This document shows, one piece after another, positions 11,902-35,143 of a stretch of DNA of 64,000 nucleotides. The position numbers were made by a program, and so were the translations under genes. The notes beneath the pieces were generated by a model. It was not told the origin of the DNA, ran no database searches, and saw only the letters and a list, made by a program, of their open reading frames with translations. This DNA is from Candidatus Hydrogenedentota bacterium. GTDB lineage: Bacteria; Hydrogenedentota; Hydrogenedentia; Hydrogenedentales; SLHB01. Location of the stretch: positions 138,251 through 202,250 of the forward strand of contig CAVUWV010000031.1 in NCBI GenBank assembly GCA_963745075.1. The letters are read 5' to 3'. The first letter of the stretch is position 1, and every line of letters starts with the position of its first letter.

Positions 11902-12691
11902 CTACTTCGTAATGCCACGAATGGAATTCTGAACAAAATCAATGAAGTGGGTCCGTTCCGGGCACTCGTCGACGGACGCTTCGATTTCATAGATCGCCTG
12001 CGTCGTATTCAGGGTTGACCGGAACATGATTTTGTATATGGTCTTGATACTGGATCGCGCTTCGTCGGACACTCCGTTTCGCTGGAGCCCACGGGTGTTG
12101 GGCCCGCAACACCGGGCCGGGTTTCCATCCACGATCATGAAGGGTGCAACGTCATGCCACACGCGACTCAGCCCGCCAATCATCGCCATCTTGCCGACGG
12201 CACAGAACTGATGGATGGCGCTGAGCCCGCCGATGATGGCGCAGTCTTCGACCTTCACATGTCCGGCCAAGGCGACGCAGTTCGCAAGGATGACGTTGCT
12301 GCCAACGTCGCAATCATGTCCGACGTGCGCGCAGGTCATGATGAGGCAATCGTCGCCGATGCTGGTGATACGGTGCTCGTCTTCATAGCTGCTCATCGTG
12401 CTCGCGCTGATGGTGGCGTGTTCGCGAATCACGTTGCGGTCTCCGATCTCCAGGCGCCCGACAAATTCGCTTTTCTGCTTGAGATCCTGCGAGACGACGC
12501 CGACCTGAGCGCCGGAGTAGAGGCGATTGCCCTGGCCCAAAACGGTACGGCCATCGATGACACAATGGGGACCCACCGACGGTCCCGGATCCGATACGTA
12601 CCTGCGCTCCGATGATGCTGTACGCCTGAATCTCGACATCGTCGGCCAACTCGGCGTTGCCATCGACGATCGCTGTCGGATGAATGCTCAT
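11902..12691 (-). pseudogene. lpxA: Acyl-ACP--UDP-GlcNAc O-acyltransferase LpxA, interrupted by one extra nucleotide (~12577)
   Basis: N-terminus '[38 protein letters not shown]' (ATG 12691) lies in one frame. '[26 protein letters not shown]...' continues to stop 11902 in the +1 frame. Removing one G in GTC-G-GTG-GGT restores a 262-aa hexapeptide-repeat LpxA. Confidence 0.85.
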
Positions 12692-13116
12692 GCGATGTGT
12701 CACTTCCGCCCTCGCTCCCGAGGCTTTTGGACGCACGTCACGATCCGTCGTTCACTGGATTGCCCGCAACACTGGACCCTGGCCGAGGTCGATGAACCGT
12801 GGCGAATATCGTGCGCACTTACCACCCGCCCCGTGGTACCGCGTGCGGGTTCATGGGGTTTGGTCCTCGCCGTCACTTTGTCCCGAACTCGGCATATCGT
12901 CGCTGCACCAGAAGACGATGTTCAGGATGGATGGTACCCCAGAGGTGTTAGGGATAGCACAATCGGGGTTGGAAATCAAGCGAGCCGCGCGATTTACGGG
13001 CTACGCGTCCCGGGGTGAGAGGGCGACCTCGCCCTTCAAAGCAGCGTTGGTTCGGGCATCGTGTCGAACCGACCGTGGGCCCGGGCGCCTCCATGCTTCC
13101 GGGCCCGCGGCGGTGG

Positions 13117-14268
13117 CTATTTGATGATGGGGAATTTCAGGACGAACTCGGCGCCTTCGTACTCGTTCTCACTGAGTACGACTTCGCCATTATGACGCCG
13201 CATAATGTTCTTTACCGCGGCCAACCCAAGGCCCGTACCGCCCTTGCCCTTGGTGGAGTAGAACGTATCGAAGATCTTGGTGCGGTTTTCCTCGGGAATA
13301 CCCGGGCCCGTGTCTCCGACGGCGACACAAATATAGTCCGGGTCGCGCCAGGTCCGGATGAGGATCTCCCGGGGCGGGGCCTGGCCATCCATCGCCTGGC
13401 AGGCGTTGGTAATCAGATTCAATACGGCTTGCCGCATCAGTACGAAATCCCCTTCACACAGGGGGATATGCTGTTCGAGTTCGCGATTCACTTTGACCGC
13501 CATCTTTTGCATGAGCGGCATACTTACCGTGAGGCACGTTTCCACCACATCGTTGATGTTCAGAATGGAGAACCGTTGGGTTTCGTGGCGCAGAAAGTTC
13601 ATGGCGGACCGAACGATATCCGTGCAGAGACCGATTTGGCCGTGCATCATCTGCAAACGGTCGGGAGTCGGCACGACTTCCGGGCGGTTGAGAATCATCT
13701 CGAGTTGACCGGTAATCACGGCCAACGGCGTACCCAAATCGTGAAGCATGCCGGATACAAACCTGCCCAGCGTCTCGAACCGGTTGGCTTCCATGGCCAG
13801 TTCTTCCATGCGCCGCCGTTCCAATTCCTTCTCGCGTTTGTCCAGCCCTTCTTCGACGTGCCGGAGCATGACCTTCGCGTCGAATGGTTTTACGATGTAG
13901 GCCAGCGCGCCGTACTCGACGGCGTTCATGGCCGAATCCAGTTCGCCGAACCCGGTCAGGATAATTACTTCGGTTTCGGGGAACTTGGTCTTGGTCCAGC
14001 GCAATAATTCGACACCGGATTGTTTGGGCATGCGGAGGTCGGTGATTACGAGATCGACCGGTTCGGATCGCAGCACTTGTTGCGCTTTCGATACATCCTC
14101 CGCGATGAGAACTTCATGGTCTGCTTTCAGGAGCATTCGGAGGGCCTGCCGCGGCCCGTTTTCGTCGTCGACGATCAGAATTCTCCCGCGAATAGCCTGC
14201 TTTGAAATCGGTCCCATTTCTCTACCCATCCCCAGCGTTTCCGGAGCCGCAACCGTTAGGATACCCAT
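13117..14268 (-). CDS. Hybrid response-regulator receiver / histidine kinase
   Basis: Receiver 'RILIVDDENGPRQ...DLVITDLRMPKQSG', H-box 'MLHDLGTPLAVITGQ', ATPase boxes 'NLITNACQAM', 'DTGPGIPEE', 'GGTGLGLAAV'. Confidence 0.9.
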   Translation of the reverse strand: MGILTVAAPETLGMGREMGPISKQAIRGRILIVDDENGPRQALRMLLKADHEVLIAEDVSKAQQVLRSEPVDLVITDLRMPKQSGVELLRWTKTKFPETEVIILTGFGELDSAMNAVEYGALAYIVKPFDAKVMLRHVEEGLDKREKELERRRMEELAMEANRFETLGRFVSGMLHDLGTPLAVITGQLEMILNRPEVVPTPDRLQMMHGQIGLCTDIVRSAMNFLRHETQRFSILNINDVVETCLTVSMPLMQKMAVKVNRELEQHIPLCEGDFVLMRQAVLNLITNACQAMDGQAPPREILIRTWRDPDYICVAVGDTGPGIPEENRTKIFDTFYSTKGKGGTGLGLAAVKNIMRRHNGEVVLSENEYEGAEFVLKFPIIK

Positions 14269-14309
14269 GGTTTTTCAACCCCCTGCGTTACAAGTCGGGC
14301 TAGTTAGGA

Positions 14310-14324
14310 GCAAGATAGGTGCCA
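14310..14324 (-). promoter_or_regulatory. sigma54 (-24/-12) promoter TGGCAC-N5-TTGC driving the RR-HK gene
   Basis: The minus strand reads TTGGCACCTATCTTGCT (reverse complement of 14310-14325), ~42 nt upstream of ATG 14268. It matches the consensus TGGCAC-N5-TTGCW exactly. Confidence 0.75.
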
Positions 14325-14390
14325 ATGTGTCAACAATTTGTCAAGTCGGTTTATGTTAACTCTTTACAACTGTCAATTTGACGAAGAATC

Positions 14391-14446
14391 TGTACATTTT
14401 TGTACAGCAATCACCAAAACACGGATTCCCTGTACATTTTTGTACA
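14391..14446. promoter_or_regulatory. Two identical enhancer-like sites TGTACATTTTTGTACA (TGT-N10-ACA), 40 bp apart
   Basis: The exact 17-nt repeat CTGTACATTTTTGTACA occurs at 14390-14406 and 14430-14446, about 70-120 bp upstream of the -24 element. Each copy fits the TGT-N10-ACA dyad used by NifA/NtrC-type activators. Confidence 0.65.
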
Positions 14447-14552
14447 AACGAAATCGCCCGGAAGAAGTATGCATATCGGTGTAAGGGACAGGGAGCTATT
14501 ACTTTTTGGGGACCACCGGTTTCCGGTTCGGGACCGGCTGCCAAAAAGAGGC

Positions 14553-14581
14553 TTGCAGTTTACGAAGCGCTGTGGTTAAAT
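14553..14581 (+). promoter_or_regulatory. Candidate sigma70-type promoter (TTGCAG-17-TTAAAT with TG extension)
   Basis: TTGCAG (14553-14558), a 17-nt spacer, then TTAAAT (14576-14581) preceded by TGG. The same TGTGGTTAAAT string recurs at the OmpA-like promoter. Confidence 0.3.
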
Positions 14582-14616
14582 AGCGTCTTCGCCGTTCCAA
14601 TGGAGCGGACGAGAAA

Positions 14617-14802
14617 ATGCAAACAAGAGTGTTAGAACGAGAACCGACGGGAAAACGTGATATGGGCAGCATATTCAAACATGCCGACGCGCAACACGCC
14701 GTGAAGCACGGGGTAGCGTGGTGCACCATGTCCACGTTTATTCGTGGCGTGGCCCGAGTACCCGCCTGCGGTTCTCGTCTCGAGGTGCAGCTATTGACGT
14801 AG
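14617..14802 (+). CDS. Small hypothetical ORF (61 aa, or 46 aa from ATG 14662) or non-coding transcript
   Basis: This is the only plus-strand ORF between the candidate promoter (14553) and a strong terminator (14834-14876). It has no recognisable motif and a weak RBS. Confidence 0.25.
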   Translation: MQTRVLEREPTGKRDMGSIFKHADAQHAVKHGVAWCTMSTFIRGVARVPACGSRLEVQLLT

Positions 14803-14833
14803 CGACTTAGAGAAAAAAGCTCAAACAAACCGA

Positions 14834-14876
14834 GCGCCGCAGGCGAGAATCCACCGCCTGCGGCGCTTTTACTTTT
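14834..14876 (+). terminator. Rho-independent terminator
   Basis: 12-bp GC-rich stem GCGCCGCAGGCG / CGCCTGCGGCGC with a 9-nt loop, followed by TTTTACTTTT. Confidence 0.75.
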
Positions 14877-15078
14877 CGAGTATGCAATCTTTTTTTGGGC
14901 GGTTCCGGGTGGTCCGGGGCCGAGTCAATAACCACAAGGAGACGCAGCATGAAATTCCGACATCACGACGCCGTGCTCATTACGGTGCCCCGCTGGGGCA
15001 AGCGAATGTGCACGAACCGATCCCAATTATCCGGTGATAACGAAAACTCAAGACGATGTAGAAAAGGAGAGTCCAGTC

Positions 15079-15510
15079 ATGGCACGGTTCAATGCGGAGT
15101 TCTGGGAGATTCCAACTCAGTCCGCCTATCTCGATAATATTCCGTCCGAGCGGGCCTTGTGGTTTGAGACAGATGAAGACCGCGAGCGGCGGTACGCACT
15201 GCACGATTTCTTCCGCAGCGTGTTGCCGTTCGTGAAAGACATCATCGATGCAAAATTGACGGCGCGACAGCGCGAGGTTTTGCGTCTGTATTACTTCTGC
15301 AACAAAACGCAGGAGGACATCGCCGCGATGCTGAACTTGTCGCAGTCGACGGTCAGCCGGCACCTGTTCGGAACCGTCCGCAATGGGAAGAAGGTCGGCG
15401 GGGCACTTCCCAAGCTCCGGCGTGCCATTGAGGAACGGGATCATGTGCCGATCCATTCGGCACTGGCCCAGTTGCGGACGCGCTTCGACGAAGCGACGGT
15501 CGCTGCATGA
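15079..15510 (+). CDS. Small sigma-70 region-4-type HTH protein (sigma-factor-like / LuxR-type DNA-binding protein)
   Basis: 143 aa from ATG 15079, with RBS AAGGAGA 8 nt upstream. 'LTARQREVLRLYYFCNKTQEDIAAMLNLSQSTVSRHL' is a region-4 helix-turn-helix. Confidence 0.7.
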   Translation: MARFNAEFWEIPTQSAYLDNIPSERALWFETDEDRERRYALHDFFRSVLPFVKDIIDAKLTARQREVLRLYYFCNKTQEDIAAMLNLSQSTVSRHLFGTVRNGKKVGGALPKLRRAIEERDHVPIHSALAQLRTRFDEATVAA

Positions 15511-15750
15511 AGCGGCTGACGGCACGCAATACGTGCGTAATGCGGATAGTGGCAGCCGGAGAAGGCGCCCGGACGTGCAGGTAACACGATACGGGACCCG
15601 CGGTACCGTAAAGTGAATGCTTGTAAGCGCCGGGCGCCTTTGATACACTGGAGTCCGGACACAAAACCGTGTACGGGTGGGGTACCGGGTGCGAGACCCC
15701 GGCGCAGGAGCCTTACACGTACAACTGTCAGTGGGTTATCGCTGCCCAAC

Positions 15751-15779
15751 TTGACAGCGTGGGGTCTTTGTGGTTAAAT
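15751..15779 (+). promoter_or_regulatory. sigma70-type promoter TTGACA-17-TTAAAT (extended -10)
   Basis: TTGACA (15751-15756), a 17-nt spacer, then TGG-TTAAAT (15774-15779), ~48 nt upstream of the OmpA-like start. Confidence 0.5.
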
Positions 15780-15826
15780 GTAGACTACCATGGATTTTAG
15801 TAAGCGGAACTAAGGAGACGACCACA

Positions 15827-16504
15827 ATGAAAAAACTACTGATTGGGGTAGTGGCGGTCATGCTGGTTGCCGGAAGCGCAACCGCTGCTACCTGCGGACC
15901 CAAGACCTGGGACGACATGTCCTGGTGGGGCAACACGGGCGCGACGCCCGAGCCGTATCCGGATCAAGGCGCGGCTGGATGCCCCGACTCGACCGCCCGG
16001 TCCTGCTATTGGTGGTGGCCGCAAGAGCCCGACACCAACAGCGGCGACACGGAACTGTGGGGTAACCGAGGCGTTATTTATCACTGCTGGGAAAAACCCC
16101 CGATGCCGCCTCCGCCGCCACCCCCGCCGCCTCCGCCGCCTCCCGTGGTACAGCGTACGGCGATCGTGCTCAACAACGTCTTGTTTGATTTCGACAAGGC
16201 CGTGTTGAAGCCGGAAGGCAAAGCGGAAGTGGACAAGCTGATCAATGAAATGAAAGCCCATCCTGGCGACACGGTCGAGATCGAAGGGCATACGTGCGAC
16301 CTCGGCAGTGAAGAGTACAACATGGGTCTTGGTCAGCGCCGTGCGGATGCTGTGAAGAGCTACATGGTTGAGAGCGGCATTGCCGCCGACCGCATCACGA
16401 CGAAGAGCTACGGTGAAACCCAGCCGGCCGTGCCGAATGACGGGCCGGCGAACCGGAAGCTGAACCGGCGTGCGGTGTTCAACATCACGCTCGGCAGTGA
16501 ATAA
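15827..16504 (+). CDS. OmpA-family peptidoglycan-binding protein with a Trp/Cys-rich N-domain and poly-proline linker
   Basis: RBS AAGGAGA precedes ATG 15827. Signal peptide 'MKKLLIGVVAVMLVAGSATA', linker 'PPMPPPPPPPPPPPPP', OmpA_C 'VLFDFDKAVLKPEGKAEVDKLI...IEGHTCDLGSEEYNMGLGQRRADAV...NRRAVF'. Confidence 0.92.
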   Translation: MKKLLIGVVAVMLVAGSATAATCGPKTWDDMSWWGNTGATPEPYPDQGAAGCPDSTARSCYWWWPQEPDTNSGDTELWGNRGVIYHCWEKPPMPPPPPPPPPPPPPVVQRTAIVLNNVLFDFDKAVLKPEGKAEVDKLINEMKAHPGDTVEIEGHTCDLGSEEYNMGLGQRRADAVKSYMVESGIAADRITTKSYGETQPAVPNDGPANRKLNRRAVFNITLGSE

Positions 16505-33331: not shown

Positions 33332-35143
33332 GTGGCAAAATCCGGTATCACGAAGGGCGTATCGTGGCCCCTTGCCGACAAACCGATCAGCATCGGGCGA
33401 GACCCCGGTTGCGACATCAGCATTCTGGACGGCCACGTATCGCGGCATCACTGTCAAATCGAAGCCGTAGGGGATGGGATCTTCCTGACCGATTTGGGAA
33501 GCCGCAACACCACGATCGTCAATGGGAAGCCCGTGACACGCTGCGACCTTCGGCCGGGCGATGAAATCGCGGTCGGCAACGTGCGATTGCTGGTGGCGGA
33601 GGTTGGAACGCCCGAAGCCGACAAACTCGAGGGAAGCCAACCTGGCTCCACCGTGTCGATTCGGCAATCCTCGGGGTTCTACGTCCGTGGCAAGCGAGCG
33701 GACTTTCTGGCGTCGGGCAGAACGCATACGATTTACGATCTTGCCGACCTCTATTCCATTTCCCGCACGATGTGGACGGCCGCGAGCCGCGAGGAATTAA
33801 TTGAACGAGCGGGCGAATGGCTGGTGGATCGGTTTTCCCCCAGCATCATCTGGTTGGTCACAGGAGCGGGCGGTGCGCTCGATATCCAAGAAACGTATTG
33901 CGTGCCGAACCGGAAGAAACAGCAACCGCCTCGGGAGCATTGCGAACGTGCGATCCAGACCGGCGACGGGTTGTTGGTTCCGTTGGGAAAGATTACGTCG
34001 CACGCCGAGCCGCCGGAGACGCTTTTGGTGGTGCCGTTGGTCGTCGGTCCGGAGACGGTCGGCGCAGTCGCGATTCAGTCCGATCGGGGCCGAAGCGCGT
34101 ATGATGAGGCCGATCTGGAACTGCTTTTGGCGGTAGGGTGTGTAGCCGCGCCGTGGGTTCACGCGATGGCGACCATTGAATCGCTAAAAGAGGAGACGAG
34201 CCGCTTGCGCCGGGTTCGGCCGGAATCCCCGGTGCTCATCGGGTCGGGCCGTGTCATGGAGGATGTCCGGGGCGCCATTCATAATGCGGCACAATGCGAC
34301 CTGAACGTTCTGATCCTGGGGGAAACGGGTTCGGGCAAAGATATTGCCGCACGGTTGGTTCACGACCTGGGCGCCCGTCGAAAAGCTCCATTTGTTGCAG
34401 TGAATTGTGCCGCCATTCCCAGAGAACTTTTCGAAAGCGAACTCTTCGGGTACGAGCGAGGCGCGTTTACCGGGGCGGTCCGGAGCAAGAAGGGTCTCTT
34501 GGACGAGTGCAGTGGCGGGACGCTGTTTCTGGACGAGATCGGAGATTTGAGTTCGGAGAACCAGGCCCGGTTGCTTCGCGCGATCGAAACGCACGCGTTC
34601 CGGAGATTGGGAGGGTCGGAGGAGCATCATGTCGACTTCAGGGTCGTCTCCGCGACCAATCGTTCGCTCACCCGATCCATCGCGGAGAATTCATTTCGAT
34701 CGGATCTGTACTATCGGTTAAATGCTATCGAAATTGCGATGCCGCCGCTTCGCGAGCATCTCTCGGACATACCGGAACTGGTCGACCATTTTCTGCATCT
34801 GGCGCGGTTGCGTGTCAAACGTCCGCTGAAAGGCATCACGCCCGAGGCGCTTGAGGTTCTGCAGAAACGGGGCTGGCCGGGCAATATTCGCGAGTTACGG
34901 ACTGCCGTCGAACGCGCGGCTGCAATCGCACAAGATGATATGGTGCGTCCGGAGGACTTTGCGGAGTCGCCCCGATTCTATGACCAGCGGTCATTCCCTA
35001 CATTGAGTGAATTGGAACGGAGCCACATTCTCGAAGCAATTGACAAGGCGCAGGGAAACATGACGGAGGCTGCGCGCCTTCTTGGAATCGGACGCACGAC
35101 ATTGTATGACAAGCTTTCCCGCTACAACCTGCGAACGCCTTAG
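33332..35143 (+). CDS. sigma54-dependent transcriptional activator, FHA - GAF - AAA+ - Fis-type HTH
   Basis: FHA 'SIGRDPGCDISILDGHVSRHHCQI...NTTIVNGKPV'. AAA+ 'VLILGETGSGKD', 'ESELFGYERGAFTGA' (GAFTGA), 'LFLDEIGDL'. HTH 'AARLLGIGRTTLYDKL'. Confidence 0.93.
   Translation: MAKSGITKGVSWPLADKPISIGRDPGCDISILDGHVSRHHCQIEAVGDGIFLTDLGSRNTTIVNGKPVTRCDLRPGDEIAVGNVRLLVAEVGTPEADKLEGSQPGSTVSIRQSSGFYVRGKRADFLASGRTHTIYDLADLYSISRTMWTAASREELIERAGEWLVDRFSPSIIWLVTGAGGALDIQETYCVPNRKKQQPPREHCERAIQTGDGLLVPLGKITSHAEPPETLLVVPLVVGPETVGAVAIQSDRGRSAYDEADLELLLAVGCVAAPWVHAMATIESLKEETSRLRRVRPESPVLIGSGRVMEDVRGAIHNAAQCDLNVLILGETGSGKDIAARLVHDLGARRKAPFVAVNCAAIPRELFESELFGYERGAFTGAVRSKKGLLDECSGGTLFLDEIGDLSSENQARLLRAIETHAFRRLGGSEEHHVDFRVVSATNRSLTRSIAENSFRSDLYYRLNAIEIAMPPLREHLSDIPELVDHFLHLARLRVKRPLKGITPEALEVLQKRGWPGNIRELRTAVERAAAIAQDDMVRPEDFAESPRFYDQRSFPTLSELERSHILEAIDKAQGNMTEAARLLGIGRTTLYDKLSRYNLRTP

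Follow-up and report, generated by a model that had tools for sequence, protein, structure and literature searches.

The analysed window, a stretch of 64,000 nucleotides (C31:138251-202250) of a Candidatus Hydrogenedentota bacterium, belongs to a 6.8-Mb assembly with a G+C content of 59%. A gene on the minus strand of this window encodes a hybrid kinase, referred to here as RR-HK, whose upstream region contains a predicted sigma54 promoter and two copies of a palindromic sequence (Table 1). Pfam analysis of the 383-aa open reading frame revealed Response_reg, HisKA and HATPase_c domains. The receiver Asp (DLVITDLRMP) and Lys (IVKPF) and the H-box His (HDLGTP) are all intact. Orthologs were found in 86 of the 135 Hydrogenedentota genomes, and within the first set of 40 relatives 31 carry one, with 46-86% identity.

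Linkage of lpxA to the kinase gene, which it follows in this window (segment 11902-13116), is limited to the genus, and a conserved operon of the kinase with lipid A genes was therefore rejected. The 425-bp spacer separating the two genes accordingly belongs to no conserved operon that includes the kinase gene.

Table 1. Features of the RR-HK promoter region and the candidate activator gene. Positions are those of the window unless a contig is named.
Feature	Position	Strand	Remarks
RR-HK target gene	13117..14268	minus	383 aa, cytoplasmic hybrid kinase REC-HisKA-HATPase_c; Pfam, NCBIfam, translation
Shine-Dalgarno-like AGGGGG	14280..14285	minus	12-17 nt upstream of ATG, between sigma54 box and ATG
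Predicted transcription start	14298	minus	~12 nt downstream of GC, from -24/-12 numbering; predicted 5′ UTR ~30 nt
Sigma54 -24/-12 element TTGGCAC-CTATC-TTGCT	14309..14325	minus	Sequence read and coordinates
A+T-rich spacer, sites to promoter	14326..14390	minus	65 bp; TTGACA-like repeats adjoin -24 box
Proximal predicted activator site TGTACA-AAAA-TGTACA	14391..14406	.	16-bp palindrome; centre ~-100 from predicted start
Distal predicted activator site	14431..14446	.	Identical 16-bp palindrome; 40 bp from proximal site; centre ~-140
TATGCATACT element	14467..14476	minus	~25 bp beyond distal site; not part of enhancer
Candidate activator gene, NtrC family	C18:221351-222724		REC-AAA+-HTH, 458 aa; outside the window

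The promoter and the palindromic sites of the RR-HK gene

Sigma54 promoters are described by an established -24/-12 numbering, and transcription starts approximately 12 nt downstream of the GC dinucleotide. An earlier note, made from the sequence of the window alone, placed such an element about 42 nt upstream of the kinase gene. Inspection of the minus strand bore this out: the ATG at 14268 lies 41 nt beyond TTGCT, on the same strand as the box. The GG (14323/14322) and GC (14311/14310) dinucleotides show the canonical GG-N10-GC spacing, the core TGGCAC-CTATC-TTGC spans 14324-14310, and TGGCACCTATCTTGCT at 14324-14309 matches TGGCAC-N5-TTGC(A/T) with no mismatches. The leader GACTTGTAACGCAGGGGG is kept in two genus relatives with 86% identity (L003 and L004), but not in L005. 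Taken alone, the occurrence of one TGGCAC-N5-TTGC in 64 kb carries no statistical weight, as at least one was obtained in 13 of 100 shuffles. Across the genome 38 exact matches were counted, compared with approximately 16 calculated from base composition, and several of the 38 lie beside genes encoding enhancer-binding proteins (EBPs). A scan of the locus region for sigma70 promoters found none, and the Rfam scan of 12500-16000 yielded nothing but a sub-threshold terminator-like match.

On the plus strand, the 17-mer CTGTACATTTTTGTACA is present at 14390-14406 and 14430-14446, i.e. in copies exactly 40 bp apart, 66-81 and 106-121 bp upstream of the -24 element. The 16-bp palindromes within these copies begin 82 bp (proximal) and 122 bp (distal) upstream of the -24 T. 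All positions and distances given in the earlier note (two exact copies 40 bp apart, roughly 70-120 bp further upstream) thus hold, and the region has the layout of an EBP enhancer, with at least two phased dyads approximately 80-150 bp upstream of a -24/-12 box. The 17-mer occurs exactly twice in the 6.8-Mb genome, in both cases at this locus. A genome scan for the 16-mer dyad TGTACA-N4-TGTACA returned three occurrences, two here and one elsewhere.

The region between the proximal site and the promoter is presumed to serve as a looping or bending region. Its sequence is kept within the genus, while its length is fixed across the phylum. Three genes of the HU/IHF family were identified in the genome; no good IHF consensus was seen in the spacer when it was checked by eye.

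The TATGCATACT element (Table 1) contains a 9-mer core, ATGC[AG][CT]ACT, which precedes the kinase gene at variable distance in 18 of 27 orthologous loci, two of them without sites. The genome contains five copies of this core, which corresponds to the chance level. Small open reading frames running through the element showed no conservation by eye across orthologous loci. By analogy with glnAp1/p2, this second upstream element might be a sigma70-type promoter, in which case it would possibly resemble glnAp1, or it might be a regulator site. Further upstream a divergent promoter, TTGCAG-17-TTAAAT, was distinguished on the plus strand (window 14553-14581), and its unit ends at a bidirectional terminator (14833-14867). 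It is kept in relatives as TTGCR-17-TTWRAT, approximately 35-100 bp beyond TATGCATACT. The region of the divergent transcript has no match in Rfam.

Conservation of the promoter region across Hydrogenedentota

In the first set of relatives, three elements recur in upstream regions that are otherwise unalignable, i.e. a pair of 16-bp sites spaced by 39-41 bp, together with a TGGCAY-N5-TTGC box whose first T is 82-83 bp away from where the proximal site begins. A motif matrix (T-G-T-W-C-A-W-W-W-W-T-G-W-A-C-A) was derived from the ortholog sites, with the first 25 orthologs as the training set. The two window sites are the joint top matches to this matrix in the genome (26.7 bits each, the next match scoring 20.6 bits), and together they form the best site pair (53 bits, versus 31 and 28 for the next two).

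The search was then extended to 135 Hydrogenedentota genomes, which added 41 upstream regions that had played no part in building the matrix. A region was counted as positive if it contained a site pair of at least 24 bits with a spacing of 38-42 bp, and a GG-N10-GC box with no more than three mismatches located 76-91 bp from the proximal site. Under this unified criterion 60 of the 68 readable orthologous upstream regions were positive, although the genomes are related and such counts overstate the number of independent events. Among regions added after the matrix had been fixed, 36 of 40 were positive, and only two of 20,000 random 540-bp genome segments satisfied the same criterion. The sites of the positive regions are spaced by 39 bp (22 cases), 40 bp (29) or 41 bp (9). 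The proximal site is separated from the box by 79-90 bp, and in 52 of the 60 its distance from the -24 T falls within 82-84 bp. The promoter consensus is TGGCAYG-N4-TTGCT (T55 G60 G60 C55 A57 Y60 G36-N4-T48 T59 G60 C60 T35), with GG and GC invariant in all 60 orthologous promoters.

Both the sites and the box are missing upstream of six orthologs (G016, G023, G024, G120, G125 and G127). In four of these, namely L010 (G023), L159 (G120), L173 (G125) and L190 (G127), a TTGACA-17/18-type promoter is visible in place of the sites and the sigma54 box. These replacements represent natural turnover of promoter class at a single gene. Of the two remaining negative regions, that of G032 retains one site and the box, while that of G123 retains both sites and a degenerate box. 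A good box without sites was found in none of the 68 readable regions. Box and sites thus behave as one unit, in retention as well as in loss.

The 109 distinct orthologous sites were also compared with each other. In all but 12 of them the palindrome is imperfect. At the variable positions 4 and 13 the bases differ independently of each other (Fisher p=0.54) and without compensatory changes, non-complementary T/T and A/A combinations being common, and the 4-bp spacer inside the palindrome is 95% A/T. The invariant bases are internal (G2, C5, A6 / T11, G12, C15 of TGTWCA-WWWW-TGWACA) and are kept in 90-109 of the 109 sites. The description of the dyad in the earlier note, TGT-N10-ACA made of two TGTACA, is correct for both window copies; as a conserved core it does not hold, as the outer T...A pair is kept in just 41 of 109 sites. 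Because the half-sites vary without covariation and the spacer is A/T-rich, the 17-mer is best read as a protein site and not as a hairpin. The pattern is that of two half-sites (TGTACA or TGTTCA) which degenerate separately, lie 10 bp from each other and are probably read by a dimer, rather than that of a stem-loop under selection. In this comparison, the half-site behaviour and the promoter specificity are those of enhancer sites.

Two readings that separate the palindromes from sigma54 were considered. The palindromes could be operators of a sigma54-independent regulator, or terminator/attenuator hairpins of an upstream transcript, placed next to a fortuitous box. The terminator scan does flag the 17-mer as a weak stem-loop, a box of this kind is expected by chance in some windows of this size (see above), and a cluster of motif-like sites without a sigma54 box exists at C10:480546. 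We nevertheless consider this reading very improbable: the distance between site and -24 element is nearly constant, box and sites disappear together, GG and GC never vary, and the scan of the region for sigma70-type promoters was negative. The hairpin or terminator version in particular was rejected, as there is no covariation between the arms. It is scarcely credible that the 17-mer is a repeat, dispersed or mobile, with no regulatory role. This reading is refuted by the two-copy genome count, nothing in its favour was found, and the positions of the sites are kept in orthologous loci whose flanks cannot be aligned. The region is thus best described as an enhancer-dependent sigma54 promoter.

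Only one further sigma54-linked cluster was identified in the genome (C3:34220-34375). It comprises two motif-like sites 29 bp apart, located 101 bp from the sigma54 promoter TGGCACGTGAGTTGCT. Sites and box are kept in three genus relatives, and the spacer diverges. Within and beyond this segment (C3:34220-34420; L067:2720-2920), the promoter is followed by a 40-nt genus-invariant leader (GTCAATAATTGACCGTCGCGGGATTAGGAGACCGTCGGCGG), a 50-codon open reading frame and genes encoding an ECF sigma/anti-sigma (vWA) pair. The C3 cluster may be a second target. The C10 cluster mentioned above (C10:480546-480626; L068:3047-3127) consists of three motif-like sites, 40 and 25 bp apart, and includes the second-best pair in the genome. 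It lacks a sigma54 box and precedes a small XRE-type HTH gene, and was not counted as a regulon member.

Sigma54 machinery and the candidate activator

A sigma54-dependent promoter presupposes rpoN, and the genome was checked for this gene, as the earlier note had proposed. It is present: a Sigma54_DBD domain (217 bits) was recognised in a 478-aa open frame at C17:64812-65285. An exact TGGCACGTGACTTGC is located directly upstream of the rpoN open frame (C17:66246-66260, minus strand), and rpoN itself may be under sigma54 control. The genome also contains 27 full-length EBP (sigma54 activator) genes. Their products include 14 REC proteins (two of them REC-PAS), eight FHA proteins, one GAF protein, one XylR-type protein and three without a recognised sensor domain. 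With rpoN present, a locus-specific 17-mer, a fixed geometry across most orthologs, and box and sites lost together, the proposal that the RR-HK gene is under sigma54/EBP control is well supported.

The activator is not encoded beside its target. No AAA+ domain was found within 1.5-8 kb of the kinase gene in 32 orthologous loci, and the idea of a neighbouring EBP gene was rejected. A phylogenetic tree was used to compare 84 EBPs from five genomes: the analysed one (27 EBPs), two site-bearing (G035 and G037) and two site-less (G011 and G023). Several EBP groups have members in all five. Only one group, that of the NtrC-family protein encoded on C18, follows the sites in its distribution, with members in the site-bearing genomes and none in the site-less pair. 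The gene of this protein comes third in a compact run that encodes, in order, a 7TM-GAF-PAS kinase, a REC-GAF-PAS histidine kinase and the candidate activator, and it overlaps the stop of the second gene. In each of the 27 loci whose upstream flank could be read, the REC-GAF-PAS kinase gene directly adjoins that of the activator.

Among the 40 relatives, match scores to the candidate activator are bimodal, with orthologs at E<=1e-118 (55-88% identity) and paralogs at approximately 1e-105 (44%). An ortholog is present in all 24 site-bearing relatives, and is absent from all three relatives that carry the kinase without sites and from all seven that lack the kinase. In G028 the activator was detected before the upstream region had been read; sites were predicted, and were found. 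Of the 135 genomes, 75 carry both the activator and the kinase gene (78 once the contig-end fragments recovered in G044, G078 and G123 are included) and 44 carry neither; the discordant cases are mostly highly fragmented assemblies, in which absence calls are weak. Of the 60 site-bearing genomes, 58 contain the activator and two, G118 and G132 (more than 700 contigs each), show no ortholog; among the six site-less genomes it is missing from four. On the kinase tree G024 plus G016 and G023 form separate lineages, which indicates that activator and sites were lost together at least twice. Genus g46 (G125 and G127) is a counter-example: it has kept a C18-type activator, with a sigma70-type promoter and neither sites nor box before the kinase gene. 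A motif search (up to one mismatch) in these two genomes and in those without the activator gave 0-2 single matches each.

The HTH is the most conserved domain of the candidate activator (mean column conservation 0.83 in 26 orthologs with 55-88% identity), and these orthologs show essentially no variation in the recognition helix, LGTTRR(I/V)LKYKMD. An invariant helix would match an invariant site. In one relative (G097, C32:54077-64025) the activator and target kinase genes lie 7.5 kb apart on the same strand; in its congener G039 they are 2.8 Mb apart.

The earlier note had named two possibilities for the activator, the FHA-GAF-AAA+ protein encoded at 33332 in the same window, or another EBP encoded elsewhere. 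The former (FHA-GAF-AAA+-HTH; window ~33335-35140, C31:171585-173390) is a complete EBP with an HTH_8 domain, encoded 19 kb from the target. Its orthologs with at least 60% identity are confined to the genus, the best matches outside are at most 45% identical, no better than within-genome paralogs, and no match at E<=1e-90 was found in nine readable site-bearing genomes (G006, G009, G010, G020, G022, G027, G030, G031 and G037). Since the protein is genus-restricted while the sites are conserved across the order, its role as the activator is very improbable. The second possibility is the better reading, and the co-distributed C18 protein fits it. There is, however, a minor but real chance that promoter and sites are genuine and that a different EBP acts on them, the co-distribution of the C18 protein reflecting shared lineage history. 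Candidates for such a role are the REC-AAA-HTH proteins at C19:101129, C32:49403 and C36:59845 and the GAF-AAA-HTH protein at C10:135276. Their groups have orthologs in all five tree genomes and are beyond the reach of a presence/absence test; moreover, g46 keeps the C18 activator without sites, while G118 and G132 have sites without a detected C18 ortholog. On the other hand, these groups persist where sites and box have been lost, whereas the C18 group disappeared with them at least twice, and both the C18 HTH and the site are invariant. The C18 protein is therefore retained as the candidate activator.

Taken together, the sequence comparisons make it very probable that 14309-14446 is a functional enhancer-dependent promoter of the RR-HK gene, with the C18 protein as the most likely activator. 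In the proposed mechanism, RNA polymerase with sigma54 would bind the TGGCAC-N5-TTGC box as a closed complex. Two phosphorylated dimers of the NtrC-family activator would bind the two TGTWCA-WWWW-TGWACA palindromes, centred on roughly the same helix face. The dimers would then assemble into an active AAA+ ring and reach the polymerase by DNA looping over the A+T-rich spacer, and ATP hydrolysis would open the promoter. In this way one two-component system would switch on transcription of a further receiver-kinase, forming a signalling cascade. As the kinase core of RR-HK is AtoS-like, this protein may in turn act on an NtrC-family regulator, which would speculatively extend the cascade or close a feedback loop.

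Comparison with known systems and significance

At the NtrC-activated glnAp2 promoter of enteric bacteria, which is of the sigma54 type, NtrC dimers have two strong sites, centred near -140 and -108. The RR-HK region resembles this promoter in having a -24/-12 element with two palindromes that lie near -100 and -140 and face approximately the same side of the helix, and in a candidate activator of REC-AAA+-HTH architecture that is encoded with its kinase. The differences are in the site itself (here TGTWCA-WWWW-TGWACA, 16 bp, with half-sites 10 bp apart), in the spacing (40 bp, compared with approximately 32 bp in glnAp2) and in the target, which here is a signalling kinase unlinked to the activator gene and not a nitrogen-assimilation gene. 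The candidate activator scores 426.9 bits against the NtrC model (TIGR01818; cut-off 558.6) and so falls outside this equivalog.

The window copies also match literally the TGT-N10-ACA pattern of NifA upstream activating sequences, and lie at a similar position, approximately 80-120 bp upstream of a sigma54 promoter. This is a resemblance only, and membership in the NifA type was rejected: the invariant bases are internal here and the outer T...A pair is mostly not kept, the candidate activator has a REC domain and not GAF, there is no nif context, and the nifA model score is 360 against a cut-off of 529.

In NCBIfam the nearest model to the candidate activator is AtoC (457 bits, cut-off 714), followed by NtrC, and both kinase cores, including that of RR-HK, are nearest to AtoS and ZraS; all of these scores are far below the equivalog cut-offs. 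As in AtoSC and ZraSR, a kinase-activator operon would drive a sigma54 promoter. The sensors differ (7TM-GAF-PAS and REC-GAF-PAS), and the target here is unlinked and itself a kinase.

A literature search, in whose top-ranked results the phylum did not appear, revealed no description of TGTACA-type EBP sites or of a sigma54 regulon for Hydrogenedentota. We consider it somewhat more probable than an even chance that TGTWCA-WWWW-TGWACA is an undescribed EBP specificity, read by the invariant LGTTRRILKYKMD helix, and that the system is a phylum-wide unlinked cascade. In such a cascade the three-gene unit would transcriptionally induce the AtoS-like receiver-kinase, which may exert feedback on the sigma54 activator of that unit or on a different one, and several lineages would have been rewired from sigma54 to sigma70, usually with loss of the activator.

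The mechanism is a textbook one, an ordinary bacterial switch, and the value of the locus lies in annotation and as a regulon anchor and not in new biology. It is a real, well-conserved sigma54 promoter with enhancer sites, whose motif and probable activator can be predicted from conservation. Hydrogenedentota are an uncultured phylum known from metagenome-assembled genomes. For these bacteria, the locus provides an enhancer motif with fixed geometry obtained by comparative genomics, a testable activator-target pairing that does not depend on a cultured strain, and a natural series of sigma54 to sigma70 promoter replacements coupled to loss of the activator.
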